Source of the DNA: Dehalococcoidia bacterium
Lineage (GTDB): Bacteria; Chloroflexota; Dehalococcoidia; SM23-28-2; RBG-16-64-32
Length of the DNA: 64,000 nucleotides
Reading direction: 5' to 3'
Assembly (NCBI GenBank): GCA_963667205.1
Contig: OY762959.1
Location: 1,342,399-1,406,398, forward strand
Part shown: piece by piece, positions 3,173 to 26,984 of the stretch
Position numbering within the stretch: position 1 is the stretch's first letter
Layout: each line of letters begins with the position of its first letter
Notes under the pieces: generated by a model
The model's database searches: none
Seen by the model: the letters and a program-made list of their open reading frames with translations, nothing else
What the model was told of the DNA's origin: nothing
Translations under genes and position numbers: made by a program

Positions 3173-3566
3173 CCGCATCCATTGCGGGCCTGCGGACGGC
3201 TGTGATCCGCAACGCTCGTGAAGCGGTTGCCGCAATCCTTCGACTGCACACGGAAGAACGGGCCACTGTCGAAGAAGAAGGCAACGCCAAGCCGACGATC
3301 GTGCCGGCCTCGCCGGAAGTGCCTTCTGCATCGTTGAGAATCGCATGCTGCTCACCGCGTACCATGTCTTCAACGAGGGGAAGGCCCGCGATCCGAAGGA
3401 CAAGTTCTACGCCATCATCGTTCCTCAGAACGGGGAGAAAGCCTACAACTTCCCCGTGGTCAGATTTCCGTTCGAGAGCCTCGAGTTGGACCTGACCGTT
3501 AAGCGTAAAGGCCCCGCACTCGCGAGGCCAGTGACCCAGGGAAAAGAGGCGAAGGCCTAATTCATC

Positions 3567-3736
3567 GGGATCGAGTTCGACAGCAACGCTGACAGCAACG
3601 TGGGCGGACTTCGGGGTGCAAGGGGAGTCAAGCTGAGACGCTTCTAGATACGGGAGAAACCTCTGGAGACAGCCTGAGACGCTGCACAGACAACTTTTAA
3701 TCCGGGAGTCGTGGGTTCGAATCCCACCGGGCCCTC
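3567..3736 (+). ncRNA. tRNA-like/tmRNA-like structured element, copy 1, in an intergenic region
   Basis: The 3' end contains a perfect T-arm, GTGGG-TTCGAAT-CCCAC, followed by the acceptor strand CGGGCCC. No complete cloverleaf lies upstream. About 170 nt is homologous to the element at 18847-18995. The 5' part contains GGGATCGAGTTCGAC. Confidence 0.35.
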
Positions 3737-3885
3737 AACAAATTCGTATCTGAAATTGGCCCGGAAGCCGAGTCACCGTAGGCGCCAAGAGGCGTTTGAC
3801 GGCAACGCAGCGGCGTTCAGTACCACGACTTCCCGCCGTCTTGCCTGTTGAGTTTACCGTCGCACGCGTTTAGATTGCGCATCAG

Positions 3886-4194
3886 ATGGATGCTGAGAAG
3901 TTCCTGGCCAGCCTTCGACAGGAAGTCCTTGATCCCATGGAGCACGCAGACACGTCAGGGATAATGGAGCAACTGGAGCAACTCAACCCCGCGATTCGTG
4001 CCCTTGAGGCGGCCAACACCGAGGAGGAACTGCGAGAGTTCCTAGAGATGCCGGGCGCCAGCGATGTGGCAGGTCACATACTCGGGATCTCTGCCCGCTG
4101 GCTTGCTGGTCGGAATCGTTCTCAAGTCGCCAGGCACCCCCCTCAGACTCTCGGTGCCGAGGGTAGTCTCACCATGAATAGCCGAACGAGATGA
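3886..4194 (+). CDS. Hypothetical small protein overlapping the amidase start
   Basis: ORF only. It has a 4-nt overlap (ATGA) with the downstream amidase gene. Confidence 0.3.
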   Translation: MDAEKFLASLRQEVLDPMEHADTSGIMEQLEQLNPAIRALEAANTEEELREFLEMPGASDVAGHILGISARWLAGRNRSQVARHPPQTLGAEGSLTMNSRTR

Positions 4195-5594
4195 CTCAAA
4201 GCCGCAGCGCGCTGGAAATCGCCCGTCTGGTTCGCCGACGCGAGATATCTCCGCTAGAAGTTATCGATAGTACGCTCACCAGCCTCGACAGGCTGAACCC
4301 GAGCCTGAAAGCTTTTGTCGCTGTTCGTCGTGAAGAGGCGATGGCTGAAGCCCAGGCCCTGCATGCTCGGCTTGAGAGCGGCGACGATCCGGGCATCCTC
4401 GCCGGAGTACCGATCGGCGTCAAGGATGTGGAGGACGTTGCCGGATTGCCGACGACCTACGGCAGTGTTCCGTTCGAGGACAATCTGGCGCGCCAGGACT
4501 CAGTTCACGTTGAGAGGCTGCGGGCGGCTGGAGCGATCGTCCTCGGCAAGACAAACACCCCGGAGTTTGCGTCCGCCGGGTTCACCAGGAACCTACTGTT
4601 CGATGTAACACGGAGTCCGTGGGATCCGGAGCTAACGCCCGGCGGATCGAGCGGAGGTTCAGCGGCCGCAGTAGTCTCCGGGATCGTGTCGCTCGCAGCG
4701 GGAACGGACAGAGGCGGATCGATCCGGATCCCCGCCTCGTACACCGGCTGCTTCGGAATGAAACCGAGCTTCGGCCGGATCCCGCGCGGGCCCTCGACGA
4801 TGCTGCAGTGGAGCGATCTAGAATCGATAGGCGCGCTGTGCGGCCCTGTCGAGGACTACGCTCTCTACCTCGACGCCGTATGCGGCTATCATCCGCTGGA
4901 CCCTGACTCGCTGCCAGCGCCTCCGGCCGGCTTCCTGGCGTGCTTGGACGAGCCGCTACCGAAGCTTCGCATAGGCTGGGCACCTGCGTTTGGTAGGAAC
5001 CGCTGCGATGACGAGGTCTTGGATGCCGTGAGATCAGCGGTCAGCGCCATCGAGGGCCTTGGGCAGGATGTTGAGGAGGTCGACGTGCCTCTCTCTGACG
5101 CGACAAGTGCCGCCTGGCTGGCGATAGGCGCGTTCGAGCGCTACGCGGAGCTCAACGAGTTCATCGAGCCGCACCGGGAGAGTTTTGGGCGAGCTTTTCT
5201 TGCTGGAGTGGAGTTTGGCAAAGAGGTCACCGCTGAACGCTACGGCGAAGCGCAGAGAGTCCGTTCGGAGCTTAATAGCCGACTTGCAGCGCTCTTTCGC
5301 GATTACGATCTGCTGCTTACTCCAGCAACGGCAACGACTGCGTTCGATGTCCGCGGTAGGCTTCCGTCGGAGATCGCCGGGGTGAAGGTCGAAGACCCGC
5401 TTGAGGTTACGCCGTTCACCTATCAGTGCAACATGTCGGGGCATCCTGCTGCGAGCGTGCCGGCGGGCCTTGTCGGCGGACTGCCCGTCGGTCTGCAGGT
5501 GGTGGGGGCGAGACACCGCGATGACCTTGTATTGCAGCTGTGCCACGCCTTCGAGAAGATCCGCCCGTGGACGCAAGCCTGGCCTGAGCTCTAG
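4191..5594 (+). CDS. Amidase (amidase-signature family)
   Basis: Carries the GGSSGGSAAAV amidase-signature motif and a Ser-cisSer-Lys type core. Confidence 0.9.
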   Translation: MTQSRSALEIARLVRRREISPLEVIDSTLTSLDRLNPSLKAFVAVRREEAMAEAQALHARLESGDDPGILAGVPIGVKDVEDVAGLPTTYGSVPFEDNLARQDSVHVERLRAAGAIVLGKTNTPEFASAGFTRNLLFDVTRSPWDPELTPGGSSGGSAAAVVSGIVSLAAGTDRGGSIRIPASYTGCFGMKPSFGRIPRGPSTMLQWSDLESIGALCGPVEDYALYLDAVCGYHPLDPDSLPAPPAGFLACLDEPLPKLRIGWAPAFGRNRCDDEVLDAVRSAVSAIEGLGQDVEEVDVPLSDATSAAWLAIGAFERYAELNEFIEPHRESFGRAFLAGVEFGKEVTAERYGEAQRVRSELNSRLAALFRDYDLLLTPATATTAFDVRGRLPSEIAGVKVEDPLEVTPFTYQCNMSGHPAASVPAGLVGGLPVGLQVVGARHRDDLVLQLCHAFEKIRPWTQAWPEL

Positions 5595-6745
5595 CGCTCG
5601 AACAGGTGGACGACGATTCCTGCGTTGGCACCGCCGGCGGCGTTGTGGCAGAGCCCGACTTTCGGTGGCCCTTCGACCTGCCGAGCACCGGCCTCGCCCA
5701 GCAACTGAGAGTAGATCTCGGCGATCTGCGCTACGCCCGTCGCGCCGAGCGGGTGACCGCGGCTGAGGAGCCCGCCATCCGTATTAACTGGAATGGTGCC
5801 TTCGATGCCGGTCTCACCGCGCATCGTCTTATCGGCGGCCTCACCCTCTCCGCACAGCCCCAGCGCCTCGATCCGCACAATCTCGCCGGAGGTGAAGGCA
5901 TCGTGAAGCTGCGTTACGCCGACATCTTCGGGTCCGATGCCAGCTCGCTCGTATGCTTCTCCGGCTATGCGTTTCGCCACCGCGTCGGTTAGGTCGGCGT
6001 CTGTTTCGAGGCTCTCGGAATCTTCGTACTTTGGCGTGCCCATCGACCAGCCGCTCACGCGAATCCACTTGCTCGAGTAGCGAGGTGCTACGTCCTTGGC
6101 ACAGACCACAGCGGCGGAGGCCCCGTCGCTCGTTGGACAGCAGTGGTAGAGCGTGATCGGATCGGAGATCATGCGCGAGTTCATAACCTCCTCCAGAGAA
6201 AGGGGCTTCTGGTGATGCGCATTGGGGTTATGCTGAGCGTTCTTGTGAGACTTGACCGACACCTCAGCGAAAGCCTCGGATGTCGCCCCGTACTTATCCA
6301 TGTAGGCGTTCGCTTTGAGGGCGTATCGAGGCGGCATGAGACCCATACCTAGCTTGTCCTTGTAGGTCCCCTCCGTGTTCGCCTGTACCAGGCCGCGCTC
6401 CATCCTCTCGAATCCAACGACGAGTGCGATATCGTAGACGCCGGACTCGATAGCCTGGCAGGCCTGCCGGAAGGCCGTCGAACTGCTAGCGCAGGCCATA
6501 TCGGTACTGATGATAGGGACCCCTGTCATGCCCAGCTCAGACACGGCCTCGAACGCGCCGCCGCTCGACGGTTGAACGCGTCCACAGGTAACGAGCTCCA
6601 CGTCCCTAAACGGAACACCCGCCATATCGAGTGCGTTGGTTGCGGCCTCTCGGACGAGCTCCTGCGCTGTCTTTTCGGGCCATCGCCCGAATGGGTGAAG
6701 TCCAACTCCCATGACCACTACGTCTCGACTCATGCCTACGACCAC
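5591..6745 (-). CDS. Thiolase-like lipid-transfer protein (SCP-x/Ltp-type thiolase)
   Basis: MSRDVVVMGVGLHPFGRW... is a thiolase-fold N-terminus. A conserved C-terminal GGLLSRGHPLGATG is present. It is paired with a DUF35 gene. Confidence 0.85.
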   Translation of the reverse strand: MVVGMSRDVVVMGVGLHPFGRWPEKTAQELVREAATNALDMAGVPFRDVELVTCGRVQPSSGGAFEAVSELGMTGVPIISTDMACASSSTAFRQACQAIESGVYDIALVVGFERMERGLVQANTEGTYKDKLGMGLMPPRYALKANAYMDKYGATSEAFAEVSVKSHKNAQHNPNAHHQKPLSLEEVMNSRMISDPITLYHCCPTSDGASAAVVCAKDVAPRYSSKWIRVSGWSMGTPKYEDSESLETDADLTDAVAKRIAGEAYERAGIGPEDVGVTQLHDAFTSGEIVRIEALGLCGEGEAADKTMRGETGIEGTIPVNTDGGLLSRGHPLGATGVAQIAEIYSQLLGEAGARQVEGPPKVGLCHNAAGGANAGIVVHLFER

Positions 6746-7062
6746 CCGTTTCTGGCCGGCGCAAAGCGGTACGCGCCGACCTCTTCGCCTTCCTCGTCGG
6801 TTCCTATCGACTCCAGTACAAGCTCAACCCTGGCGCCTGCCTCGATCTGCTCTGAGTCGACCTGGGAGCCGCTGATCGCCTCGACTGTCGGCCCCGAGTC
6901 AAGATCAACGATCGCCACGTAGTACGGCGCCGGCACCATTGAACTCGGGCCTGTGCGATGCACCAGGGTGAGAGCCTTTATGACTCCCGCCTTGGGAAGA
7001 TCAACGTCATCGAGGTTGGCAAAACCGCAACGCGGACAGCGATAGCGCACGGGATGGAACAC
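6736..7062 (-). CDS. DUF35 OB-fold / Zn-ribbon protein, partner of the Ltp thiolase
   Basis: Contains a CPRCG Zn-ribbon followed by an OB-fold. It is translationally coupled with overlap to the thiolase. Confidence 0.85.
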   Translation of the reverse strand: MFHPVRYRCPRCGFANLDDVDLPKAGVIKALTLVHRTGPSSMVPAPYYVAIVDLDSGPTVEAISGSQVDSEQIEAGARVELVLESIGTDEEGEEVGAYRFAPARNGWS

Positions 7063-7254
7063 AGTATCACAGTCTGAGCACCGCCGCCCGATGAGAGACC
7101 ATGCATCCGCCGCGGAGGAGTCAAGCCTGAGGAGCTAGTCGTCGACCGCCTTCATTGTCTTGCGAGCGATCGTACCGTGCGTCTCGTAATCGAGTCAACG
7201 ATGCCAGGGCCTGATCTACTTGAGGATAAGCGACAGGCTGGCCTAGAATCGTGG

Positions 7255-7590
7255 GCGTGAGTCCCCCTGAGGAGCGCATCGCTATCGCGGGCGTTGGAGT
7301 TACAGAGCTTGGAGCGCTTCCTGAGAAGAGCGGCACGATGCTCGCTACGGAGGCGATACGCGCGGCGATGAGGGCCACGACTCCTCGACCCACCTCGCCG
7401 CCGGCTCTGCGAGCCAGGACGTGATCCGGGACGAACTCGCGGAGTACGTCGCTATCGTTGGCGACGAAAGAGAGTGCAGGGATCGTCTTCAGGCAATTGC
7501 TGCTATCGGCGTTGACCAGATCACTCTCACACTGATGTCAGGCGGCCGAATGGAGCGCCTGCAATCATTCGCGAAAGTTGCATTGTCGTA
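7255..7590 (+). pseudogene. Gene remnants: thiolase N-terminal fragment fused to an LLM-oxidoreductase C-terminal fragment
   Basis: The + frame gives ...ERIAIAGVGVTELGALPEKSGTMLATEAIRAAM (thiolase N-terminus) and ...YVAIVGDERECRDRLQAIAAIGVDQITLTLM (LLM C-terminus). There is no complete ORF. Confidence 0.4.
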
Positions 7591-7614
7591 AGGATCAATG
7601 AGCAGGAGCTGGAT

Positions 7615-8418
7615 ATGACTGAAACGCAGGCGAACACCCAAATCGAGGTCACCCGTGACGGTTCCGTTGCAGTCATTCGCGTCAATCGTCCGGAACGCAA
7701 GAATGCGATGACCGCCGAAATGTTCCAGGAGTTCTCGGATCGTCTGAAGGAGCTCGGCTCCGACAATGACGTGCGCTGCGTCGTAATCACCGGCACCGGA
7801 GACGTCTTCCTCTCCGGCGCGGACGTTGGGAAGGTCACATCCACCGTTGGCGAGATGAGCCCCGCGGACTGGCGGGACGTACGCGATCTGTTCCAGGAGC
7901 AGTTCTGGGCGCTCTATTCGATGCGGAAGCCGACGATCGCAGCAATTAATGGAGCGGCCGTCGTGACCGGCGTCGAGGTCGCACTTGCCTGCGATATCCG
8001 CATCGCCTCAGATCAGTCCCGTTACCGGGTTGGATTCCGCCGCATGGCTCTGATGCCAACGCCGATAATCTGCTACATGCTGCCGCACGTTATCGGCCCC
8101 GGACGAGCTAAGCTCATGGCGTTCACCGACCGCTTCTTCCCGGCGCCCGAAGCCGAACGCATGGGGCTCATTGACGTCGTTGTCCCGCACGACAAACTGA
8201 TGGACGAGACGATGAGTCTCGCACATGAGCTAGCGTCAGGGCCGACAATGATGATCGCTTCGACGAAGGCCGCCATGGACCAGTCGTTCAACCTGGACTT
8301 CGATGTCCTCCGCCGGCAGATCGATGGCATGCAATACACGCTTACGCGCACCCAGGACTACCAGGAGGCGATGGCCGCGTTCGCAGAGCGCCGGGAGCCC
8401 GACTACAAGGGCAGGTGA
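7615..8418 (+). CDS. Enoyl-CoA hydratase/isomerase (crotonase family)
   Basis: Typical crotonase fold sequence (VAVIRVNRPERKNAM... ITGTGDVFLSGADV). Confidence 0.9.
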   Translation: MTETQANTQIEVTRDGSVAVIRVNRPERKNAMTAEMFQEFSDRLKELGSDNDVRCVVITGTGDVFLSGADVGKVTSTVGEMSPADWRDVRDLFQEQFWALYSMRKPTIAAINGAAVVTGVEVALACDIRIASDQSRYRVGFRRMALMPTPIICYMLPHVIGPGRAKLMAFTDRFFPAPEAERMGLIDVVVPHDKLMDETMSLAHELASGPTMMIASTKAAMDQSFNLDFDVLRRQIDGMQYTLTRTQDYQEAMAAFAERREPDYKGR

Positions 8419-8468
8419 GAGCCTGCCCATTCTCCCTAACGCGCTCTTCGAATTCAGGAGGACGTCTC

Positions 8469-9711
8469 TTAGAAAATGGCGCCAGTCCTCCCTGAGTCCC
8501 TCCTGCGTGCCCGATCGCAGACGATGTCTGGAAGATCCGGCGCGATGCGGAGGTTCACGTGCTTCTCTTCGATCGAGAACTGAAGATCATCTGTGACCTC
8601 TCCGATTAGCGGTTCTACGGCCACAGTGGAGTAATTAGCGCCGACCCGGCCAATACGCGACAAATCAAGCAAGTCTTCGATAAGGGACTTCATTCGCACA
8701 GCGCTCTCCCGGACGACGCTAATGTATCGTCTACCTTCGCCGTCCAGCTGTTCGGAGTAGTCCTCGGCCAGAAATGCGCTGAACGCCTCTATGCCTCGCA
8801 GCGGTTCCTTGAGGTCGTGGCTGACGACGTATGTAAAGTCTTCGAGCTCTTGATTAGAGTGTGTTAGTTCCCGGTTAGCATCATCGAGCTGAGCGGTCCT
8901 CTCGGCGACGCGCTTCTCGACGTCATCGGCGTGTCCCCGGATGGCCAAAAGGAATCTGGAAAGAAGCCCGGTTGCCAGCAACCCCACTACTAACACGGCC
9001 CATGGCAACCAGCTGCTGAAGCCCGTCAGATCGGAATGCGATGAAATTGCTAGTGTCCAAGTCCTGTCCGCAACGGCCAAGTCCGTGGCCCAGTCCGGGG
9101 GTGGCCGGCTGCTCGCCAGACGTCTGGCTGTAGAGCACGCCGGGGTCGGCGGGGTTCGTTGAAGCGATCAGTTGAATGTCGATCCCGGTAGTGTCGAGAC
9201 GCGCCAGATCGGCCTCGAGCATGTCTCCAACGCGAAATACTGCAAGAGCGAATCCAGCGAGGTTTTCCTGGCGCTCCTCTAGAGTCTCGAAGGGCAGCCC
9301 CGCCGCAAAGATTGGCACGAAGAAGAGGAATCCCGACTGCGTGGAAGTCTCTTGAACGAGTGTGATCTGAGCTGTTGTGGTGGCATCACCTGTATCGGTG
9401 GCGCTATTCAGGGCTTGGAGTCGAGTCTGGCTCGAGCCTAGATCGAATCCTAGGGCAGCTTCGTTACCCGAGTACGGCTCAACGTAGTAGACAGGAAAGT
9501 AGACCGACCGCTGGGCAGCGGCAACAACCTCGCCCGCGGGCGTCCGTTCAATGATCTCGAAGTCTGCGAAGCCATCCGCGCGGGCTTCCGCCTCGTAGGA
9601 GGCGCGTTGGGCTTCAGAGACCGATAACCACGCCTGGGACAAGGCGCACCCGGACCTCGACATGAACGATCCAGCCGACAACATGAGCTGCGTGCTGGCC
9701 TCCTTGGCCAT
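8469..9711 (-). pseudogene. CHASE-domain sensor histidine kinase, frameshifted and lacking the HATPase domain
   Basis: ORF 8923-9711 encodes a periplasmic CHASE-like domain (YVEPYSGNEAALGFD). The overlapping ORF 8469-9080 in another frame encodes a TM helix plus HisKA (SHDLKEPLR). It ends without an ATP-binding domain. Confidence 0.6.
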
Positions 9712-9744
9712 GATGTACCACTCCTCCGGCGACGACCTCAGCCA

Positions 9745-9815
9745 GGTTCGAATCCCACCGGGCCCTCCACGTTGCTTCCCTATCTAAATGCAGGTCGGCC
9801 GAAAGTGGCCGTTTC
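9745..9815 (+). repeat. Partial copy (copy 2) of the tRNA-like 3' domain plus conserved downstream flank
   Basis: GGTTCGAATCCCACCGGGCCCTCCACGTT plus about 40 nt of 3' flank, homologous to 18970-19040. It lacks the upstream body. Confidence 0.5.
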
Positions 9816-9957
9816 CTTGACCCATTGATACTCAGTCCTAGAGTCAGCGAACGCGAGAGGCGGCGTGTTCTAACGACCGGCTGCTGCGGAGCCGAGGCAG
9901 TGGAGCCTTCCGCGGAACCATGCGCTCGGCACGCAGGAGAAGACTGCTGAAGGAGCG

Positions 9958-10275
9958 TTAGTCCGGAATCTCCACATCCAGGTCAAGCAGCCGCTCTGAG
10001 AGCGAGAAGCGATAATCGAACTTGAGCATCCGTGTCCGGCCGCCCTCCAGCGCCCCGTGAAGGATGAAGTTCAGTCCGCAGACGTTGGGCACCTCGAACC
10101 GTTCGACGCCACCCGGCACATCGGCAAGGAACAGCTGATGGACCCGGTCCGCCGTGACCTGCTCCCTCACGGCGTCATAGTGATCCCGGTCAAAGACGAG
10201 GAGCGGCATGTGCAGGTCTCCACCCTTGTCGCCGCCGCGCGCCACCGCTATCGCCCTCAGTTTCACAGAAGACAT
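9958..10275 (-). CDS. DUF4387-like small protein (AtuA C-terminal-domain homologue)
   Basis: About 105 aa, immediately downstream of a DUF1446 gene. Its pattern is similar to the 17533-17856 protein. Confidence 0.55.
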   Translation of the reverse strand: MSSVKLRAIAVARGGDKGGDLHMPLLVFDRDHYDAVREQVTADRVHQLFLADVPGGVERFEVPNVCGLNFILHGALEGGRTRMLKFDYRFSLSERLLDLDVEIPD

Positions 10276-10277
10276 GG

Positions 10278-11651
10278 CTAGTTAACCTCCACCATCTCGA
10301 CGTTTAGCCGGCAGACTTCCCTCGGCACAAGCGTCGGGTAGATGCCGATCGACTTGCGGATGTTCTGGCGGCGTTCACCCATACCGAGCGGGCCGATTAT
10401 GATCAGGTACTCAGAGAGGCGGGCGATGGTCAACGCTTCCGCGTGCGTCCGGACGCGGGCGGCGTAGCGAAGCATGACTTCGCCCGGCAGCGTCTCCGGC
10501 ATCGGTGCGCTATCACCGAGGCCTGACGTGAGGCCGATGTAGTCGAACCGGTCGTCGAGGGGCGTGACCTTGTCATTGTGCTCGAGGCGCTCGCGGATAA
10601 TCTCTTCGCACATCCTCGCCTTCTCCACGGCCTTGTAGCCGCTGCAGAGGAGCCAGACGTCGACGAGGTAGCCCTCATCGATGCCGACGAGCACCTTGAG
10701 AGTGTCGGGGCGGCGTGTACCCGCTGGACCCTCAGCCGAATTCCAGAAGACGCTCGCATGATCTTCGCCGGCGTCCTCGATGTGTACCTTCGTGAAGTCG
10801 GCTACGACGTCCGGGTTCAGGTATCGTTTCGGGTCGTTGATCTCATGCATCAGGTGAGCCGAGAGCGTAAACCGGTTCACGACGCCACCGGAATCAGGCG
10901 TCTTCGAGACGTCGGCTGTCCCGTCGCTTTGCACCACGGCCAGCGGCATGCCCATCTGCGCCATTCGCGGCACCTCGCGGTATCCGGGTTCCGCCCACAT
11001 GCCGCCGGTGGATACCGAGCCGCATTCGAGCAGGTGACCAACGGTAATTCCACGGCCAAGTCGATCCCAGTCGTCCAGAGACCAGCCGAACTCATGGAGC
11101 ATGGGCGCCAGGTAGAGCGATGCGTCCGATACACGCCCGGCGACTACTACGTCGGCGTCCATCGCGAGCGCCTCCGCCATCGGTTCGGCCCCGATGTAGG
11201 CGTTCGCGGCAATGATCGTCCCTTCCAGGCTGTCGATCGTCTGGTCGTGCTGGCCCATGATCGTCAGGTCGCGGTTGGCGAGGACATACTCGATGACGTC
11301 GTCCCCTTCGACGGAAGCGACTCGCACGCGACGGCCGGTCAGCTGGCGGGCGACATCGGCGACGACGCGCGCCCCTCCGAGGGGGTTGGCGGCGCCGAAG
11401 TTGCCGAGGAGTTTGACGTTGCGCTCGAGGGCGGGGCCGAGGACGAGCTGAAAACGCTCCCTCAAGTTGAGGTCATAACCGAGGTTCGGATCCTCCATCT
11501 TCTTCAGATACTGAGCCGCTGCACCTGCCTCGGACATCGCATCGAAGCACATGTAGTGCACGTCACCTCGATCAACCAGATCGACCGCGGCATCCAAGCG
11601 GTCTGATCGCGCTCCAGATCCAGAGCCGATTCGTATACTTTCGTTCGTCAC
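10278..11651 (-). CDS. DUF1446 / acyclic terpene utilisation AtuA-family protein
   Basis: The N-terminus IRIGSGSGARSDRLDAAVDLVDRGDVHYMCFDAMSE matches the AtuA/DUF1446 start recalled from memory. It is paired with DUF4387. Confidence 0.65.
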   Translation of the reverse strand: MTNESIRIGSGSGARSDRLDAAVDLVDRGDVHYMCFDAMSEAGAAAQYLKKMEDPNLGYDLNLRERFQLVLGPALERNVKLLGNFGAANPLGGARVVADVARQLTGRRVRVASVEGDDVIEYVLANRDLTIMGQHDQTIDSLEGTIIAANAYIGAEPMAEALAMDADVVVAGRVSDASLYLAPMLHEFGWSLDDWDRLGRGITVGHLLECGSVSTGGMWAEPGYREVPRMAQMGMPLAVVQSDGTADVSKTPDSGGVVNRFTLSAHLMHEINDPKRYLNPDVVADFTKVHIEDAGEDHASVFWNSAEGPAGTRRPDTLKVLVGIDEGYLVDVWLLCSGYKAVEKARMCEEIIRERLEHNDKVTPLDDRFDYIGLTSGLGDSAPMPETLPGEVMLRYAARVRTHAEALTIARLSEYLIIIGPLGMGERRQNIRKSIGIYPTLVPREVCRLNVEMVEVN

Positions 11652-11663
11652 TGTCGCGCTCCT

Positions 11664-12233
11664 CTAACTGACCGTTTCTCTGGCCGAAAGCTGTTCAACG
11701 AAGTCATCCAGTGGGACTTCAAACGGCAGCAGGATCCGCGCGATCATCGAGTAGTAACCGACGGTGATGGCCAGTTCGGCAACCTCGCGGTCGGAAAGCT
11801 TCTCGCGCAGCCGCTCGATGACTGAAGCGTCAACCCGGGCGGTCTTCCCAACGACTGTCGCGTACTCGACCACGGCCGTTTCCGTTTCGTCGAGGGCGTC
11901 CATCTTGCCTGCCACGACGGCGTTGATCTTGTCGTCCGCAACTCCGATCCGACGGGCGATGGCGACGTGGTGGGACCACTCGTAGTCGCACTCAGTGACC
12001 CGGGCGATGGCGAGGATCGCGAGTTCCCGGAGCGGCGCCGGCAGGGCGATCCCCTTGCGCAGAAAGACCCCGATTTGGCTTACCGTGAACGCTCCTTCTG
12101 GGCTATGGGCGATCTGGCGAAAGACGTTGCCAAAGCGTCCGTTCCGCTGCTCCTTGAGGCGCTGTATCCAGTCGTTCTGCTCGGTGCCTGTCTCAGGAAA
12201 GGGCAGACGGGCCATGTTTTTCCTCACATTCAT
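11664..12233 (-). CDS. Carboxymuconolactone decarboxylase (AhpD-like) family protein
   Basis: Carries the CMD/AhpD core motif (ARVTECDYEWSHHVA). Confidence 0.8.
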   Translation of the reverse strand: MNVRKNMARLPFPETGTEQNDWIQRLKEQRNGRFGNVFRQIAHSPEGAFTVSQIGVFLRKGIALPAPLRELAILAIARVTECDYEWSHHVAIARRIGVADDKINAVVAGKMDALDETETAVVEYATVVGKTARVDASVIERLREKLSDREVAELAITVGYYSMIARILLPFEVPLDDFVEQLSARETVS

Positions 12234-12242
12234 CTACTGACG

Positions 12243-13145
12243 TCACTGCAGCCGCGGGTCCAGGACATCTCTCACGAAGTCTCCAACTATATTCGCGGAG
12301 AAGACTACTACTCCGAGGGCAACGCCCGGCCACACGGCGATCCACGGGTTGCTTAGCATGTAGACTAGGCCGCTTCCACTTAGCATCCCCCCCCAAGTGG
12401 GTTGTGGGGGTGGTACGCCGAAGCCGAGGAACGACAGCGACGCTTCAATGAGGATTGCCTGGCCAATCGTTAGAGTTGCCAGTGTGATCGCCAGGGGGAT
12501 GACGTTTGGGAAGATGTGCATCCCGACGATTCGGTAGAACGGTGCTCCTATCGCCCGCGCCGAGAACGCCCACTCCGTGTTCTTCAGGCCCAGCACGGCG
12601 GATCTGATGACGCGCGATTGGCCGACGCCCAGCATCAATCCAACGGTGATCGTGACGTTCGTCAGGCTTGATCCAAAGAGAGCAAGCACGGTCAGCGCCA
12701 TCAAGATCGTTGGGAAGGACATCCATCCGTCCACGAACCGCTGAATCAGCGAGTCCACCCACGAACCAGCTGCTCCAGAGAGAGTGCCGATGACGATCGC
12801 CGTAACGATGCTCAGGGCGACGGCACCCAGCGCGACCGACAACGATATTCGTGCGCCATAGAGCACGCGGCTGAAGAGGTCTCGGCCCAGTTCGTCAGTT
12901 CCAAACACGTGTGACCAGCTTGGCCCCTCGAGCCGAGAAGGCAGGTCCACTTCGTTGTAGTGGAAGGGTGCCACCCAAGGCCCGATTACGGCAGCCGTGA
13001 TCGCGACTGCGAGCATGACGAGGCAGGCGGCCGAGAGTGGAGAACGGCGTAGCCGTCGTAGGAAGTACCCTATCCCTTTCGGCCGACGATGAGCGTCGAT
13101 CAGCGGTGGGGCGAGTTGGTCACCCGTTGAGACGGCTTCCATCAC
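12243..13145 (-). CDS. ABC transporter permease (DppC/OppC-like)
   Basis: Multi-TM protein with the permease EAA-like region. It lies in an operon with a second permease and a substrate-binding protein. Confidence 0.85.
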   Translation of the reverse strand: MMEAVSTGDQLAPPLIDAHRRPKGIGYFLRRLRRSPLSAACLVMLAVAITAAVIGPWVAPFHYNEVDLPSRLEGPSWSHVFGTDELGRDLFSRVLYGARISLSVALGAVALSIVTAIVIGTLSGAAGSWVDSLIQRFVDGWMSFPTILMALTVLALFGSSLTNVTITVGLMLGVGQSRVIRSAVLGLKNTEWAFSARAIGAPFYRIVGMHIFPNVIPLAITLATLTIGQAILIEASLSFLGFGVPPPQPTWGGMLSGSGLVYMLSNPWIAVWPGVALGVVVFSANIVGDFVRDVLDPRLQ

Positions 13146-14086
13146 TGCAGGCGGATACGCGGGTCCAGGACGGCGTACGTCAGATCGACCGCGAGATTAA
13201 CGAGGATGACTGATGTGGCGAAGACAAGATTGATCGCGGCGATGATCGGAAAGTCACGCTTCTCCAGTGCGTTGATCGTCATCTGCCCGACGCCCGGAAT
13301 ACCGAATATCTGCTCGATTACGATCGAGCCTCCGAGAAGAGTCGGTACCTGAAGGCCGACTATCGTGATGATTGGGACGAGGGAGTTGCGGAGAACGTGG
13401 CGAGACGAAACAACGAAGGACGAGAGCCCCTTCGCCTGAGCAGTGCGCACGTGGTCCTGACGGACAACGTCCAACACTGCCGTTCTGGTGACGCGCATGA
13501 CCGCACCGGATAGCTGAATGCCGAGGATCGCTGCCGGAAGCGCCAGGATGCGGATATTCTCGAGGGGGTCTTCCTCAATCGGCACATAGGTAGTCACCGG
13601 GGTCCAACCCCAGTAGTAGGCGGGCAGCAGCACGACGAGAACGGCGATCCAGAAGTTGGGCACGGCGACGAGAACCAGCGCCAGCCCTCGCCCCAGGTAG
13701 TCGACGCTCGTATCCTGGCGTATCGCCGAGAGTGCGCCAACGGGGATGCCAACGAGGGCGGCGACCGTCAGCGCCATGACCGTCAACTCAAGCGTTACTG
13801 GAAGACGTATCTGGAAGTCCTCCATCGCTGTACGCCCGGTCCACAGGGAAGTTCCGAAATCTCCCTGCAATACTCCGCCCATCCAGTCGATGTACTGCTC
13901 GTAGAAGGGCTTGTCCAGGCCAAGCAGTGCCTCGAGTTCCTGCTGGTCTCCGGCATACCCGAGATCACCGGCCATGACGGCCACGACCGAGCCCGGGATC
14001 AAGGCGAGCGCTCCGAACGATATGAAGGAAATTAGGACGATCGTCGGAATCGAGAGCAGCAATCTCCTGGCGATATAGGCTTGCAC
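13142..14086 (-). CDS. ABC transporter permease (DppB/OppB-like)
   Basis: Multi-TM permease with a 4-nt overlap to the downstream permease. Confidence 0.85.
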   Translation of the reverse strand: MQAYIARRLLLSIPTIVLISFISFGALALIPGSVVAVMAGDLGYAGDQQELEALLGLDKPFYEQYIDWMGGVLQGDFGTSLWTGRTAMEDFQIRLPVTLELTVMALTVAALVGIPVGALSAIRQDTSVDYLGRGLALVLVAVPNFWIAVLVVLLPAYYWGWTPVTTYVPIEEDPLENIRILALPAAILGIQLSGAVMRVTRTAVLDVVRQDHVRTAQAKGLSSFVVSSRHVLRNSLVPIITIVGLQVPTLLGGSIVIEQIFGIPGVGQMTINALEKRDFPIIAAINLVFATSVILVNLAVDLTYAVLDPRIRLQ

Positions 14087-14111
14087 AGCTGACTCGACCT
14101 GACGGCGGGCT

Positions 14112-15827
14112 CTATGAGGCTACAGAAGTGTCCTCTAGGGCTAGGAGAGCGTTGTCCGTGCGAACGTGAGAGCGGAAGCCGCTCACCTTCGCCTGCCAGA
14201 CGTCGTACCGTGAGGCGGCAACGGTGTGTGTTACATAGCACTCGTCGAGAAGGATGCGCTGGATATCGTCAATCGTCTTATTGCGTTCCGTCTCGTCAAG
14301 CTGTGTGCGCTGGAGATCGAGAAGCCGGTCAAGCTCCGCATTAGACCAGTGTCCGGTATTGACGGTCGAATCTGTGTAGAAGAAGCGGTGCAAGACGTCG
14401 TCAGGGTCGCCGGCCCAGGCTGTACGACGGCTCATCATCATGTCGTCGGGGTTCTTGTCGATGATGACTTTCTGGATGAAGCTCGTTGAGTCGAGCGGCG
14501 CAAGGTTTACCGTGATCCCGACATCCCGGAGGTTAGCGGCCATCAGTTCGGCTTCGCTCAGGTGCAGCGCGCCGTAACGATCGGGAGAGATCTCGAGCGT
14601 CAGCTCCGTGCCTTCGGCAACGCCGGCGGCGTCCAACAATTGTCGCGACTTCTGCGGGTCGAACTTGTGGTATTGCTCGCCCTCTCCGAAGTCGTCAAGC
14701 GCGAAGTCCGACATCACGAGGCTCACCGGAGTGTCGCGCTGACCGGTACCGCCGTGGAGTTCGGTCGCCCACGATTCGATATCGAGTGCCATCTTGATGC
14801 CGCGACGTGCGTCCGCGTTGTTCAGCGGCGCCCGGTCACTGCGCATCTGTATCATCTGGCCGCCAAGGCCGAAGTACTTATCCGTCACAAGATCGGATAT
14901 CTGGCTCTGCAGGGTCTCGACTTCGTCGAGCGAGATGTTGGTCCTGATGTCGAGATCGCCGGACAGGAAGAGAGCCGCCACACGGGACGGATCAGAGCCG
15001 GTATCCAGCCGCACCTCGTCAAGCAGCGGGCGCCCGGAACGGAAGTAGTCCGGGTTCTTCTTGAGTATGTACTGTGTTCCCGGCTGGATCGTATCGATCA
15101 TGAATGGTCCGGTACCGATCAGCGACTCAGCGCGCTCGAGCCCGCCAGTCACCGTCTCTAGCTCTGGAGCCAGGATCTGGTACGTCTGGCCCTGCAGGCC
15201 GAAGAACGTGCCGAGAGCCGGAGCATAAGGATTCGCAAGCGTGAATCGCACCGTCAGAGAATCGACTGCATCGACGGACACGATCGACTCGAGAGCATCA
15301 GCGTAAACCGAAGGCTCAACCCGAGCTCGGTCGTAAGTGTAGACGACGTCGTCGGCCGTCAGTTCGCGGCCGTTCATCGGCGCGACGTTATGGAACTTGA
15401 CCCCTGAGCGAAGTTTGAAAATGTAGGTGGTGCCGCCGTCAGTGATCTCCGGCATATCCGTGGCCAGGTCCGCGACGACCTGTGTATTGCCAGGTGCAAA
15501 GTCGGGGCCGACGGCTGAGCGTAGCAGGAAGCTGTTTGTCATGTTGCGCAGGATGTGCGTCTGAGAGTCCTCGGTGAGGATCGGGTCGAATCCACTACCA
15601 GGTTCGGGATAGGGGATCCGGGCGATGCCTCCCGCGGCGCCTGTGCCACCGTCGTCATCACCGCAACCGACCAGCGCGGCAGCGGCGACACCAGTGGCAC
15701 CCAGGCCAACGGACATCATGAACGTACGCCGGGAGAACTTCTCTCGCTTGAAGATATTGTCCACCAGGGACCTCCTTCGTCGCTCGTAGGCGTGCAGAGT
15801 CAAAACATCATAATGGCAGCGTGGCAC
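14112..15827 (-). CDS. ABC transporter substrate-binding protein, family 5 (peptide/nickel type), Tat/lipoprotein signal
   Basis: SRRTFMMSVGLGATGVAAAALVGC signal (twin-Arg plus lipobox) on a family-5 SBP-length protein. The exact start is uncertain. Confidence 0.8.
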   Translation of the reverse strand: MPRCHYDVLTLHAYERRRRSLVDNIFKREKFSRRTFMMSVGLGATGVAAAALVGCGDDDGGTGAAGGIARIPYPEPGSGFDPILTEDSQTHILRNMTNSFLLRSAVGPDFAPGNTQVVADLATDMPEITDGGTTYIFKLRSGVKFHNVAPMNGRELTADDVVYTYDRARVEPSVYADALESIVSVDAVDSLTVRFTLANPYAPALGTFFGLQGQTYQILAPELETVTGGLERAESLIGTGPFMIDTIQPGTQYILKKNPDYFRSGRPLLDEVRLDTGSDPSRVAALFLSGDLDIRTNISLDEVETLQSQISDLVTDKYFGLGGQMIQMRSDRAPLNNADARRGIKMALDIESWATELHGGTGQRDTPVSLVMSDFALDDFGEGEQYHKFDPQKSRQLLDAAGVAEGTELTLEISPDRYGALHLSEAELMAANLRDVGITVNLAPLDSTSFIQKVIIDKNPDDMMMSRRTAWAGDPDDVLHRFFYTDSTVNTGHWSNAELDRLLDLQRTQLDETERNKTIDDIQRILLDECYVTHTVAASRYDVWQAKVSGFRSHVRTDNALLALEDTSVAS

Positions 15828-15872
15828 GGACTGTCAAGGCGCTTGCAGAAACTGTAGGCGGCATGCATTATC

Positions 15873-16175
15873 TTGAAGGAGATGAGTCATGACGCCAGCC
15901 ATCGCTGCGTGGCGGCGCCCATCAGGGACGATCCGGGGCACACCGTTGCGGCGATCTCAGCGAGCGGGTGGACGGCGAAGATGACCCACGAGCGAGCAGC
16001 GCAGCTCGCCCCCATACTGCGGGGGACAGGGTCTCAGCATCGCTTGGCCATGACGGGGAGCGAGAAGGCGAGTAGGGCAGGCCACCTGATAGCGGCCAAC
16101 CGAACGAGGTCGCAGGCGTCGTCGCGCGAGGAGGAAGACCATGAGCCAGCTAAGTATCCTGTCGTACCTGGTTGA
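15873..16175 (+). pseudogene. C-terminal remnant of an IclR-family regulator (no HTH domain)
   Basis: CVAAPIRDDPGHTVAAISASGWTAKMTHERAAQLAPIL resembles the IclR effector-domain C-terminus. No N-terminal DNA-binding part is present. Confidence 0.35.
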
Positions 16176-17520
16176 CGGCCGGATCGGCGCCCGCAGCGAA
16201 GAGGCCATCCAGCACGCCGTCAACGCGATCGAATCCGGAGAGGTGGATGTGGTGTCCGGCCAGGGGACGGGAATGGACGCCGGGCCTTACTACTTGGGGT
16301 CCGGTGAGGTTCTGCCGCCCAGCCGCCCCGATATTGAGCCGATCATCCTGGCCGCGAAGCGCCGTGGCATCCCGTTCGTATTCTCCATGGGCGGGACCGC
16401 AGGCGCGGACATTCACCTGCAGCCTTATCTAGACCTGATCAACCAGATCGCTCGCGACAACAAGACTAGCCTCAAGATTGCCGTAATCAGTGGCGAGGTC
16501 GACAAGGAATACTTGCGCGGGAAGATACGTGATGGTGCGCAGGTCAAGCGCCTCTTCGAGACCCCTCGCCTGCCGCCTCTGCTGAGCATCGAAGATGTCG
16601 ACCGCGCCGAGCGCATTCAGGCGCAGATGGGGGCCGAGCCGATAATCAAAGCGCTGGAGCAGTTCCCTGACATCGACGGCGTCATCACCGGCCGCGCGCT
16701 CGACGTCGGCGTTCACATGGCGTATCCGCTGATCCGGGGTGTTGACTGGGCTACGGCTGCACATGCGGCGAAGGTGATCGAGTGCAGCTCGATGGCCTGC
16801 GACCCAGCCACGCCTTTCGACTTTGTGCTGGCGACGATTGACGGCGCGGGCTTCACGGTTAAGCCGACGAACCCCGCGCTCCGTTGCTCCGTGAAATCAA
16901 TCGCTGGACACGCGCTTTACGAGCGCGAAAACCCAGCCGAGGAGCGCAACCCCGGAGGGACCCTCGATGTCAGCGAAGCCGTGTACGAGGCGGTCGATGA
17001 CCGGACGGTCCGCTGCAGCGGCGCCACCTGGGTGGAGGATCCGTACACCGTCAAGCTCGAGGGCGTAGAGTTCGCCGGCTACGAGTACATCAGTATCTGT
17101 GGGATTCGAGACGAGATCTGCATCCAGAACATTGACTGGATCATGGACAGCGCAAAAGAGCACCTCAGGTCCGTTGCGCAGGAAGAGGAGTTCGAGGTTC
17201 ACTACAGCGTGTTCGGACGTGATGGCGTGCTTGGTCCGTCTGAGCCCATGCGCGACGTTGTGCCGCACGAGGTGGGTCTCCTCACGAAGCTCATCTGCAA
17301 GGACAAGGACCTTGCGGAGCGACTTGCACACACGCTGCGGATCAGGATTTTCATGTCACCATATCCCGGCCGCCGAACGACCGCCGGAAGCGTTGCCTTC
17401 CCGCTGCAGAACCGTGTGGTGCACACCGGTGGTGTCTACAAGTTCAACATCTGGCACCTGCTCCCGCTGGACGACCCCTGTGAGCCTTTCCCGGCGCGCC
17501 TGGTGAACTACCCAAACTAG
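16141..17520 (+). CDS. Probable DUF1446/AtuA-like protein (second paralogue)
   Basis: 459 aa, followed directly by a DUF4387-like small ORF, mirroring the 10278/9958 pair. Direct sequence similarity is weak. Confidence 0.45.
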   Translation: MSQLSILSYLVDGRIGARSEEAIQHAVNAIESGEVDVVSGQGTGMDAGPYYLGSGEVLPPSRPDIEPIILAAKRRGIPFVFSMGGTAGADIHLQPYLDLINQIARDNKTSLKIAVISGEVDKEYLRGKIRDGAQVKRLFETPRLPPLLSIEDVDRAERIQAQMGAEPIIKALEQFPDIDGVITGRALDVGVHMAYPLIRGVDWATAAHAAKVIECSSMACDPATPFDFVLATIDGAGFTVKPTNPALRCSVKSIAGHALYERENPAEERNPGGTLDVSEAVYEAVDDRTVRCSGATWVEDPYTVKLEGVEFAGYEYISICGIRDEICIQNIDWIMDSAKEHLRSVAQEEEFEVHYSVFGRDGVLGPSEPMRDVVPHEVGLLTKLICKDKDLAERLAHTLRIRIFMSPYPGRRTTAGSVAFPLQNRVVHTGGVYKFNIWHLLPLDDPCEPFPARLVNYPN

Positions 17521-17532
17521 AGGGAGGCGGAT

Positions 17533-17856
17533 ATGCCAAAGCTAGTTGAATTCACGGAAGTCTTTCGCACAAAGAACGCCGAGCCGTTCATCACAACGTT
17601 CGACCTGTTCTTCAAGGACAAGGAGTCCTACGATAGGGTGAAGGGCTCCGGCGTCATTACGCCGGAGAAGGTCGCTGAAACCTACAATATCCCGATCGAG
17701 GCAGTCTACGGGATCTATTTCATCGACAACGTGAACGCCATGAAACTCTCGATATACAAGTATGGCCCCAACGGCTATATGGCGTCGGGGGATCCTGAGA
17801 ACCCCGATAGCCAGGGCACACAGCAGCATATCCTGCTGATGAACATCGAGATTTGA
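17533..17856 (+). CDS. DUF4387-like small protein
   Basis: 107 aa. Its pattern (FDLFFKDKESYDRVKGSG) is similar to the 9958-10275 product. GC is visibly lower than its neighbours. Confidence 0.5.
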   Translation: MPKLVEFTEVFRTKNAEPFITTFDLFFKDKESYDRVKGSGVITPEKVAETYNIPIEAVYGIYFIDNVNAMKLSIYKYGPNGYMASGDPENPDSQGTQQHILLMNIEI

Positions 17857-17929
17857 GCGACTTCGTTCAATCCCGGCAAATCGCCTCGCGACGCGCCCGT
17901 CAGGGTGACCACGATAGGCCAGCGGTCAT

Positions 17930-18382
17930 CTACTCGAATTGGTAGCACGCCACGCTCCCGGGAGCGGGCGCAACGAATGGGTCAGCCAGGATGGCAGCTT
18001 GGTAGGCGTCCTCCGAGCCGTGATATTCCATCTCTGCGGCCCATAGGCAGCGAGCTTCAACGTAGAAGTTGCCGGGAGTTGATAGCCACACGTCGATGTA
18101 AACCTGCTCTAGTGGGCTGATAGGGCCGTAGAGGGCTTCGGCTTCGGCAACGTCAGCCTCCGCGTAGTCGTACTGGTCGTTCTCAAGATCGCCACCGTTA
18201 AAGCTATTAAGGATGTCCTGAAATTCTGCGCTGTTCGGATCGAATTGGAATCCGCCCTGCTGCTGGAAGCTGGTCTGCTGCTGATCGAAGTAGCCAGTGT
18301 AGATCAGGGCGCCCAGAGTGAGTACGAAGAGGGCGGCGCATATCCAGACGCCACGCCATCCATTCTTCCGCTGCCAGTACAT
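17930..18382 (-). CDS. Hypothetical membrane-anchored protein
   Basis: N-terminal TM helix, then an acidic Q/D-rich domain. The N-terminal motif GGGRYAIGFLLAALPGLGIMYWQ is paralogous to the 21550 gene. Confidence 0.5.
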   Translation of the reverse strand: MYWQRKNGWRGVWICAALFVLTLGALIYTGYFDQQQTSFQQQGGFQFDPNSAEFQDILNSFNGGDLENDQYDYAEADVAEAEALYGPISPLEQVYIDVWLSTPGNFYVEARCLWAAEMEYHGSEDAYQAAILADPFVAPAPGSVACYQFE

Positions 18383-18846
18383 GATGCCCAGACCCGGGAG
18401 GGCTGCCAGCAGGAAGCCGATGGCGTACCGGCCCCCGCCAATTTCGCTCTTGCTCTTCTTCAGGTGCTTTGTAGTCTGCTGGAAAGCTCACCTGCTACCT
18501 CCTAGCTCGTCAGGATTCAGATGGGTGCGTCGTCCCTGATTGCTCTTCTCTCGATCGAGAGTGCCTCATTCCGGAGCGCGTGGAATCCGCATAACCACTG
18601 ATCGGGCCAAGTTATATCGGCGATCTCTCGCGACCAGCGGCAGCGGCTCTTCGCGCGAGTGCCGCAACATCCTTGCGCAGGAGCTGAGTCGTACTCTCTA
18701 CTTCGCGGCTGTCGGCCCGCGCCCCGCCGCGGTGCGGGAGCAGAAACGGGTGCGGTCGCTTCGACGGATAACGACTCGCTCGGATCCCTCACGTCCCTAC
18801 CGGATCCCCCGATTAGTCTGAAGCTTCCGTATCTGGCGCCTTATCA

Positions 18847-18995
18847 GCTGACGTGTTTCGGCGCGGGGTCGTCTTCAAGCCTGTTCTCACCCCGGTTTCA
18901 CCCGGATTTTCGAACCTGGAGCCTCAGCGATCGGGCCCCAGACGACGTGACTTTTAATCCGGGAGTCGTGGGTTCGAATCCCGCCGGGCCCTCCA
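18847..18995 (+). ncRNA. tRNA-like/tmRNA-like structured element, copy 3 (most complete, ends in CCA)
   Basis: GTGGG-TTCGAAT-CCCGC T-arm, CGGGCCC acceptor strand, discriminator T, then CCA. The 5' flank is homologous to copy 1 and the 3' flank to copy 2. It sits in a roughly 750-nt non-coding stretch. Confidence 0.35.
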
Positions 18996-19136
18996 CGTTC
19001 CCTTCTTACTCTAATGCCGGTCGGCTGAGAGATCTCGCATTCTCGACTCTGGGACTCTTACTCCGGGAGTCTTCGCCACTTGACTGCCGAGGGCTTGCGG
19101 CGTTCAAGCGCTCCCTCGCGTGATCAGTCGCGTGAG

Positions 19137-25330: not shown

Positions 25331-25939
<609 letters not shown>

Positions 25940-26912: not shown

Positions 26913-26984
26913 CCTCGCACCCCGGTTTCACCCCGGACGTCGGACCTGAGAAGTCGTGGTCGTCCACGGCGGCTGACGTTTCGG

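Follow-up and report, generated by a model that had tools for sequence, protein, structure and literature searches.

Partial tRNA-Lys(UUU) gene copies as probable attachment-site remnants in a Dehalococcoidia genome

A repeat at three places in the window

The subject of this study is a 64-kb stretch of the genome of a Dehalococcoidia bacterium (hereafter the window), in which a short repeat occurs at three places, always on the same strand, among genes for metabolism, transport and signalling. Copies 1 and 2 of the repeat bound a segment of about 6.0 kb, and a segment of about 9 kb lies between copies 2 and 3 (Table 1). In pattern searches of the window, the core of the repeat, ACTTTTAATCCGGGAGTCGTGGGTTCGAATCCCRCCGGGCCCTC, was found in copies 1 and 3 with 96% identity over 47 nt, and a shorter form comprising 23-29 nt of the block, GGTTCGAATCCCACCGGGCCCTCCACG, was found in copy 2. 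None of 100 shuffled versions of the window contained a match. The repeat itself, which an initial annotation of the window had pointed out, is therefore real.

The layout of the core is that of a tRNA from about position 31 onwards, with the anticodon loop CTTTTAA (anticodon UUU), the 3' strand of the stem, the variable loop, the T arm, the 3' strand of the acceptor stem and CCA. Copy 1 has CAA in place of CCA, and it has an exact 32-mer in common with 44 intact tRNA-Lys genes of related metagenome-assembled genomes (MAGs). Since 44 intact genes carry the core among the 105 copies counted below, the shared block is the 3' 23-45 nt of the tRNA-Lys(UUU) gene of this clade.

As the initial annotation had also stated, none of the copies is a complete tRNA. 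ARAGORN reported no tRNA or transfer-messenger RNA (tmRNA) gene in the window, and no Rfam family, including the tRNA family RF00005, reached its gathering threshold there. A functional tRNA-Lys gene at the copies was rejected, since neither search gave a complete cloverleaf. The best sub-threshold Rfam tRNA match (18 bits, the cut-off being 29 bits) was at copy 3, where GGGCCCC (18933-18939) can pair with the copy's own acceptor strand and gives rise to this match; at copy 1, an Rfam search by E-value matched the T arm only. A tmRNA, standard or permuted, was rejected because no model fits in the searches by ARAGORN or by Rfam at gathering threshold or E-value, and because the core holds a lysine anticodon loop, which tmRNA is without. 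A viral origin of the core was also rejected: the 32-mer was not found in IMG/VR, and a 24-mer of the T arm and acceptor strand matched only the tRNA arrays of large phages, which are unrelated.

Table 1. Positions of the repeat copies, their arms and flanks, and the segments between them
Feature	Position (nt)	Strand	Content or basis
Arm E, upstream arm of copy 1 (attP-type P arm)	3579-3692	+	95% identity over 161 nt (arm and core) to L084 1718-1878
Copy 1	3693-3739	+	partial tRNA-Lys(UUU), from anticodon loop CTTTTAA through T arm to acceptor 3' strand
F2, right flank of copy 1 (attP-type P' arm)	3740-3810	+	AACAAATTCGTATCTGAAAT plus TTGACGGCAACG repeat
Segment of ~6.0 kb	3737-9744		85/102-aa open reading frame (ORF), amidase, thiolase, ChsH2-like OB-fold protein, enoyl-CoA hydratase, CHASE/HisKA kinase
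Copy 2	9745-9773	+	T loop, T-stem 3' strand, acceptor 3' strand and CCA of tRNA-Lys only
F1, right flank of copy 2	9774-9821	+	GTTGCTTCCCTATCTAAATGCAGGTCGGCCGAAAGTGGCCG...
Segment of ~9 kb	9822-18817		AtuA/AtuA-ferredoxin pair, CMD, peptide-type ABC transporter, IclR fragment, second AtuA-like protein with DUF4387, 150-aa ORF
Arm B, upstream arm of copy 3	18818-18949	+	84-89% identity to arms of partial copies in L045 and L058
Copy 3	18950-18996	+	partial tRNA-Lys(UUU), from anticodon loop to CCA, one T-stem substitution
F1', right flank of copy 3 (diverged F1)	18997-19071	+	flank alignments
Decayed fourth family-B arm	26915-26950	+	CACCCCGGTTTCACCCCGG..., between two convergent ORFs; core no longer recognisable

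Related loci, arms and integrases

A scan for a 32-nt core over one genome per species gave 82 loci in 50 assemblies, nearly all of them Chloroflexota/Dehalococcoidia MAGs (related loci and contigs are cited here by numbers with the prefix L). In about half of the 82 loci, ARAGORN placed an intact 75-nt tRNA-Lys(ttt) gene over the core. A looser seed gave the 105 copies mentioned above, which comprise the 44 intact tRNA-Lys genes and 61 partial copies. Several partial copies per assembly were common, and up to five were found together with three intact genes. Of the 60 partial copies scored, 47 match the tRNA no further than the 5' strand of the anticodon stem or the loop's first base; copy 2 is the sole copy in this set in which the identity begins at the T loop. 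Neighbouring copies on the same strand formed direct repeats in all 21 pairs counted; in another neighbouring pair (L059), the two copies are on opposite strands. Most partial copies are located downstream of the tRNA in direct orientation. Arrays beginning at an intact tRNA gene were seen in L056, L052, L012, L043, L049, L053 and the three-locus array L063-L019-L006. In complete genomes, partial copies were found at several separate chromosomal places (for example, in CP070630.1 and CAXXTF).

The classes of crossover sublocation within tRNA genes are reportedly due to Williams in 2002. The Islander catalogue recognises sublocations A (anticodon-centred) and J (T-stem/junction) (PMC4383910). 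In the window, the identity to the tRNA sets in at these recognised sublocations, at the anticodon loop in copies 1 and 3 and at the T loop in copy 2. Partial copies in direct repeat that end at the anticodon stem or loop are the signature of tRNA-targeting elements with tyrosine integrases.

An intact tRNA-Lys gene of what is probably the same genome (L056, in OY969584.1) lies at about 1,036,020, with a partial copy 3.4 kb downstream. The acceptor strand reads CGGGCCC in all three window copies, as in other lineages, and CCGGCCC in this tRNA-Lys gene. The difference would fit window copies that were brought in from elsewhere.

Sequences upstream of the partial copies were clustered with blastn into arm families, and the arms of copies 1 and 3 belong to separate families. 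At the outer edge of arm E, which is a sharp boundary in the comparison with L084, there are two tandem GACAGCAACG repeats; the arm also holds an inverted AGATACGG motif. A metagenome scan for arm E found nothing. The motif GACRGCAACG has 6 matches in the window against 0.47 expected. Those at 3579, 3591 and 3798 lie around copy 1, two at about -110 and one at +59 in the right flank, and a paired unit of this type is also found in the right flanks of L024, L064 and L058. Flank F2 aligns with flanks of the same three loci and of L011 and L033. The core of copy 2 and F1 together match the flank of the intact tRNA-Lys gene in L043 at 95% over 77 nt, and F1 also follows partial copies in L045, L034, L052 and L084. 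The likeness of the flanks downstream of copies 2 and 3, which the initial annotation had claimed, was borne out, since their local alignment scored 24 against a shuffle mean of 13.8, a score reached by 2 of 2000 shuffles.

Arm B of copy 3 holds CCGTATCTGG, one CCCCGGTTTCACCC unit (other arms of family B have two to three) and a degenerate stretch resembling a tRNA 5' half. In addition to the loci in Table 1, it is related to arms in L083, L032, L009, L037, L051, L044 and L023. Family B has 12 members, characterised by CCGTATCTGG, two to three CCCCGGTTTCAC repeats and TTAGCAATTRGG motifs. With a profile of this family, nhmmer gave E = 4e-46 over 18818-18999, a value that is inflated because copy 3 is one of the 11 profile sequences, and E = 0.007 for the decayed arm. 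The CCCCGGTTTCACCC unit occurs in the window at 18890 and 26920 only, against 0.01 expected. Because of the decayed family-B arm, the mosaic probably takes in at least the first 27 kb or so of the window.

In the attP of lambda-type integrases, the arm-type integrase sites are laid out as short direct repeats about 60-110 nt either side of the core. The short direct repeats flanking the cores studied here have this layout, and by analogy they are predicted to be arm-type integrase sites.

The arms bear directly on the initial interpretation of the repeat, in which the copies were expressed RNA genes of about 170 nt, tRNA-like or reduced tmRNA-like, that also serve as integration targets. Each copy does end in a perfect T arm and acceptor 3' strand, copy 3 has the pairing and the sub-threshold match described above, and two partial copies with arms of another family, family A (L056 7466-7539 and L005 7652-7725), score 37-38 bits on the Rfam tRNA model, above the 29-bit cut-off, with the upstream 30 nt resembling a diverged 5' half that begins with GGGCC. 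The 120 nt or so of diverged homology that had been described upstream of copies 1 and 3 is absent, however. The best local alignment of 3540-3692 with 18797-18949 scored 12, below the shuffle mean of 14.8, and was matched by 1982 of 2000 shuffles. Since the upstream alignment scores below the shuffle mean, the tRNA-derived core alone is common to the two copies, and there are no two paralogues of about 170 nt. The folding energies of copies 1 and 3 as RNA are close to those of shuffles (z = -0.32 and +0.03, respectively). In the consensus fold of family B, the T arm alone was supported, with compensatory changes at 1 of 13 pairs; in that of family A, the figure was 2 of 34, and the covariation term was unfavourable. 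A structured non-coding RNA was rejected on these grounds, single folds being no better than shuffles and covariation in the two arm families being almost nil. What is conserved in the arms is a set of short direct repeats, a pattern that suits protein binding on DNA better than helices. As no tRNA or tmRNA was found in the window either, we consider the RNA-gene interpretation very improbable.

Integrases were found beside the same arms and flanks in related loci. A jackhmmer search seeded with E. coli XerD detected tyrosine recombinases in 12 loci, and 5 of them were confirmed as PF00589 by Pfam. A tyrosine integrase lies directly upstream of a family-B arm in L032 (confirmed as PF00589) and in L083 and L023 (by jackhmmer alone). 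In L064, L024 and L105, a convergent tyrosine integrase gene, also confirmed by Pfam, lies just downstream of the F2-type flank AATTCGTATCT, which also follows copy 1. The integrases of L064 and L105 adjoin an intact tRNA-Lys gene, and that of L024 adjoins a partial copy.

Two further features of the arms were noted. The first is the family A arm itself (L056 7353-7542, L005, L029, L041, L043, L049, L052, L065, L071 and L072), a very conserved stretch of about 135 nt ahead of partial tRNA-Lys copies; one example adjoins the tRNA-Lys gene in L056. It contains a hairpin of 11-13 bp, ATCCCCTCGTCAGC...GCGACGAGAGGAT, with a few wobble or compensatory changes, and its last 30 nt or so are like a diverged tRNA 5' half starting with GGGCC, a resemblance that accounts for the score of 37-38 bits on the Rfam tRNA model. 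The family A arm would be either a protein-binding architecture of attP or a folded nucleic acid. The second feature is the motif YCGTATCTG (reverse complement CAGATACGR), which recurs near cores in either orientation and has 5 matches in the window against 0.67 expected, including those at 1061, 3744 and 18827. It is found in arm B, F2, arm E (inverted), family A arms (CTCCGTATCTGG), family C arms and the flanks of many intact tRNA genes, and also within 24-nt direct repeats around a block with a DUF3179 gene in L084. It may be a common site for a recombinase or an accessory protein.

The 6-kb indel and the origin of the array

Contig L084, from a close relative, was found through homologues of the DUF3179 protein encoded to the left of copy 1 (94% identity over 1.7 kb). 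Its L084 1718-1878 stretch corresponds to window 3579-3739 (arm E and core, 95% identity) and is followed directly by the copy 2 flank (window 9745-9821). The window thus has 6,031 bp more than L084, the site being otherwise identical at 94-95% of nucleotides. In the window, a 23-nt direct repeat, GGTTCGAATCCCACCGGGCCCTC, bounds the 6-kb segment at 3714-3736 and 9745-9767. Since the assembly k of 141, as read from the contig name, is longer than the repeat, we infer that the join in L084 is not a repeat artefact. The comparison shows that 3737-9744 is variably present, and the uninterrupted arm, core and copy 2 flank in L084 lend weight to the initial description of copies 1 and 2 as an attL/attR-like pair. 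It would follow from the alignment that a partial copy, and not only a tRNA gene, was the target of insertion; equally, the segment may have been excised in the relative.

The indel also bears on the idea that the copies are tRNA pseudogene fragments, arisen by chance or by duplication (for example, segmental duplication or gene conversion), with no mobile DNA involved. The window is without a recombinase and the neighbouring genes are ordinary metabolic ones, as might be expected in that case. Shuffled sequence gives no match, however, and the copies end at canonical crossover sublocations; moreover, the arm and flank families are common to integrase-bearing loci of other genomes, and the 23-nt direct repeat marks the ends of an interval that is an indel. 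We therefore find this idea hardly credible.

In our view, the copies are likely (probability of roughly 0.8) to be attachment-site remnants, that is, partial tRNA-Lys(UUU) genes left behind by site-specific integrative elements in an accreted array whose elements are decayed or carry cargo only. Of the features by which islands in tRNA genes are recognised, the window has the tRNA 3' fragment in the orientation of the tRNA, the crossover location and, for the 6-kb segment, variable presence; an integrase is found in the related loci with the same arms or flanks (L032, L064, L024 and L105).

Several observations weigh against this explanation. A proximal intact tRNA gene and an integrase inside the island are both missing. 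ARAGORN found no intact tRNA-Lys gene anchoring the array either in the window or in the European Nucleotide Archive (ENA) version of the contig (L001), which includes 5.8 kb upstream. With a window start at about 2,380,368, the array lies about 1.3 Mb from the tRNA-Lys gene of L056, the only intact copy recovered from what is probably the same genome, if both records share coordinates. The window and the 5.8 kb to its left yielded no tyrosine integrase, excisionase or remnant of one. At its left junction, copy 2 has no recognisable arm and abuts the start of the kinase gene, the start codon of which (minus strand, 9711) is 34 nt left of the copy. Among the relatives compared, variable presence was seen for the 6-kb segment only. 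In L084 and L085 the DUF3179 block follows the site, and in the window it precedes the site. Because the surroundings in the window and in L084 differ in this way, the history must have involved more than one simple insertion. Since the proximal tRNA and the integrase are lacking, we classify the copies as remnant or cis-mobilizable attachment (att) sites and not as an intact island.

The search for recombinases was made in several ways. Searching the window by tblastn with 12 integrases from related loci gave only noise, and an integrase pseudogene beside copy 1 or 3 was thereby rejected. Candidate integrases among the ORFs beside the copies were rejected, all of them being cargo (CoA-transferase, binding proteins, kinases and glycosidase). 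Precomputed Pfam lists from -5.8 kb to 29.8 kb of the window contain no recombinase and list metabolic, transport and signalling genes only. The statement of the initial annotation that the 6-kb segment carries no integrase agrees with the ORF search, tblastn and the Pfam lists, and no recombinase was found in the 9-kb segment.

We propose the following course of events for an array of attachment-site remnants. In the attP of an element, an upstream and a downstream arm would enclose a stretch with the same sequence as the 3' part of the tRNA. Recombination of this attP by a tyrosine integrase would take place at the tRNA gene or at a partial copy already present, the crossover being in the anticodon loop or in the T-loop/acceptor region, and every integration would add one direct copy of the tRNA 3' end. 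Repeated integration and gene loss would lead to an array of cargo segments parted by partial tRNAs. The segment 3737-9744 would represent one insertion into a pre-existing partial copy, with the 23 nt as the crossover or identity block, and copy 3 and the decayed arm at 26.9 kb would be further junctions. The integrase genes would have been lost, or the segments moved by an integrase in trans, and what is left would be an island of genes for catabolism and transport, either fixed or no more than cis-mobilizable. As far as can be judged from sequence alone, the structure of a cis-mobilizable element (CIME), with att sites at both ends and no integrase, fits 3737-9744.

A variant of this explanation, which does not exclude it, is that the array is an active platform, in which partial tRNA-Lys sites, dispersed ones included, act as landing pads and integrase-less cargo is excised, shuffled and re-inserted in trans by an integrase that a visiting element or another part of the genome encodes; such a system would be CIME-like and have some resemblance to integron arrays. 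It would agree with the fact that none of the 19 inter-copy segments fully contained in other loci (0.09-5 kb) has an integrase, in a sample that the 8-kb size of the loci biases to short segments; the examples checked have cargo such as a radical-SAM enzyme and a methyltransferase, NDH-2 and a ferredoxin, or a sigma factor. The arms are 82-95% conserved across assemblies and have sharp outer boundaries, the adjacent cargo being different; for instance, the genes joined to arm E in the window are not those joined to it in L084. A partial copy as the target of the 6-kb segment and the scattered chromosomal copies in CP070630.1 and CAXXTF are also in its favour. Ordinary decay of once-autonomous elements yields the same pattern, however, and the cargo segments differ from integron cassettes in having several genes that point in both directions. 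In short-read assemblies, two contigs of the same strain (L099 and L100) terminate exactly within the copy 3 repeat, but the repeat itself accounts for these breaks. We regard active shuffling as a rather unlikely, tentative addition to the remnant explanation. If true, it would be an analogue, based on tRNA fragments, of integron or CIME accretion.

Read as attachment-site remnants, the RNA-like repeat is accounted for by ordinary scars of integrative elements, a well-known kind of feature, and no new kind of molecule or mechanism is revealed. The first 27 kb or so of the window would be an island put together horizontally as a mosaic of catabolic genes (amidase, thiolase, AtuA and transporters) in an uncultured soil Chloroflexota. 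The mobile elements of this lineage are almost undescribed. As the survey of related loci shows, the tRNA-Lys(UUU) gene is a frequent integration hotspot in the clade, in which partial copies outnumber intact genes and most of the bounded segments have no integrase. This helps to set the limits of islands and flexible genes in such MAGs and to explain why their short-read assemblies break.

Known systems and neighbouring features

The islands in the Islander catalogue of tRNA gene (tDNA)-targeting islands (Hudson, Lau & Williams 2015, PMC4383910) resemble the array in several respects, namely the displaced tRNA 3' fragment in direct orientation, the identity starting from the anticodon loop (A) or the T loop/acceptor junction (J), the tyrosine integrases beside the site in related loci, and tandem arrays. 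The window differs in that it is without an integrase or a proximal intact tRNA gene, and would thus fail the Islander filters, and in that the insertion was into a partial copy far from the tRNA gene. In the same phylum, Dehalococcoides has multiple tandem islands at ssrA, with direct repeats of the 3' end of this small RNA gene (McMurdie et al. 2011, PMC3146451); there too, some segments are without an integration module and have been interpreted as CIMEs or fixed remnants (PMC3146451). The ssrA islands target tmRNA with a 20-bp repeat and a serine CcrB-like recombinase, whereas the target here is tRNA-Lys(UUU), with 23-45 nt and tyrosine integrases. Their repeats all lie within 100 kb of ssrA, in contrast to the 1.3 Mb or so between the window array and the tRNA.

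The tycheposon-seeded islands of Prochlorococcus, in which partial tRNAs and degenerate elements are scattered (Hackl et al., 10.1101/2020.12.28.424599), share with the array the additive growth beside tRNA genes, the partial tRNAs and the cargo for metabolism and nutrient uptake; the two are unlike in host phylum and in target tRNA. Neither a recombinase nor a replication gene was found in the window, and no search was aimed at the integrase clade or the replication module that are hallmarks of tycheposons. Integron cassette arrays (attC) are alike in having integrase-less cargo units bounded by a conserved site of about 100-250 nt. They differ in that the window has no IntI or attI and that the conservation of its site, a tRNA fragment with arms, is one of sequence, in contrast to the attC palindrome, which is conserved in structure and bounds single promoterless ORFs. 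An integron cassette array was rejected for the window, where there is no integrase, the repeats are tRNA-derived and the units are multi-gene and on both strands.

Some minor observations concern the genes of the segments and their surroundings. The kinase gene beside copy 2 (8470-9711, minus strand, 413 aa) encodes CHASE and HisKA domains and no HATPase_c by precomputed Pfam; lying at one end of the 6-kb segment, it is possibly a truncated or rearranged gene. In L095, a relative with 77% identity, the amidase-thiolase cluster of this segment adjoins a pyruvate dehydrogenase (PDH) operon. The 1.4-kb spacer there (6258-7672) holds no tRNA fragment, and it contains arm-like motifs (GTTCTTCCCACGGT twice, TTCGTATCTAG and TAGCCTAATTG...CAGCTAATTGG), which may be the remnant of another kind of recombination site.

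The contigs with the ion-channel gene that stands beside copy 3 belong to the same strain (L098-L100) or, without the copy, to a distant relative (L101, in JAJCYV01). In L101, a large serine recombinase, a tyrosine integrase and a DNA methyltransferase follow the homologue of the ion-channel gene at 12701-16880, a mobile region in which no tRNA-Lys fragment was found. The neighbourhood of the ion-channel gene may be a recurrent insertion hotspot.

The window differs by about 0.1% from the ENA version of the contig, with frameshifting indels (for example, at 1133-1498) and a 113-aa ORF that reads differently. A 52-nt indel at 25826-25878 separates it from another assembly of the strain (L098). 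Errors in the long-read consensus or microdiversity may affect the ORF calls in the window.

The DUF3179 block of L084 is 2.2 kb long and flanked by an imperfect 24-nt direct repeat, CTTGAGATNCGGAGTCCTAA, at 1951-1974 and 4142-4165, with the pattern CTTGAGAT(C/A)CGGAGTCCTAA. This arrangement suggests a separate inserted unit that used a different site. In L084 and L085, the 72 nt that stand near the left end of the window at 1019-1090 (with CCGTATCTG) are present in inverted orientation, across the DUF3179 block from their place in the window. The adjacent truncated ORF at 756-1037 (541-1090 region, minus strand) encodes MEAPALITYLSLL...LENLALRQQLAVLSRQSRRPRL...VQPETVVRW and has no match in Pfam; it presumably resembles the N-terminus of rve-type (IS481/IS3-like) transposases. 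Together with about 70 nt upstream, this ORF has 79% DNA identity to L020 4416-4673, which lies beside a tRNA-Lys gene, and to L077 338-754, which lies beside a partial copy.

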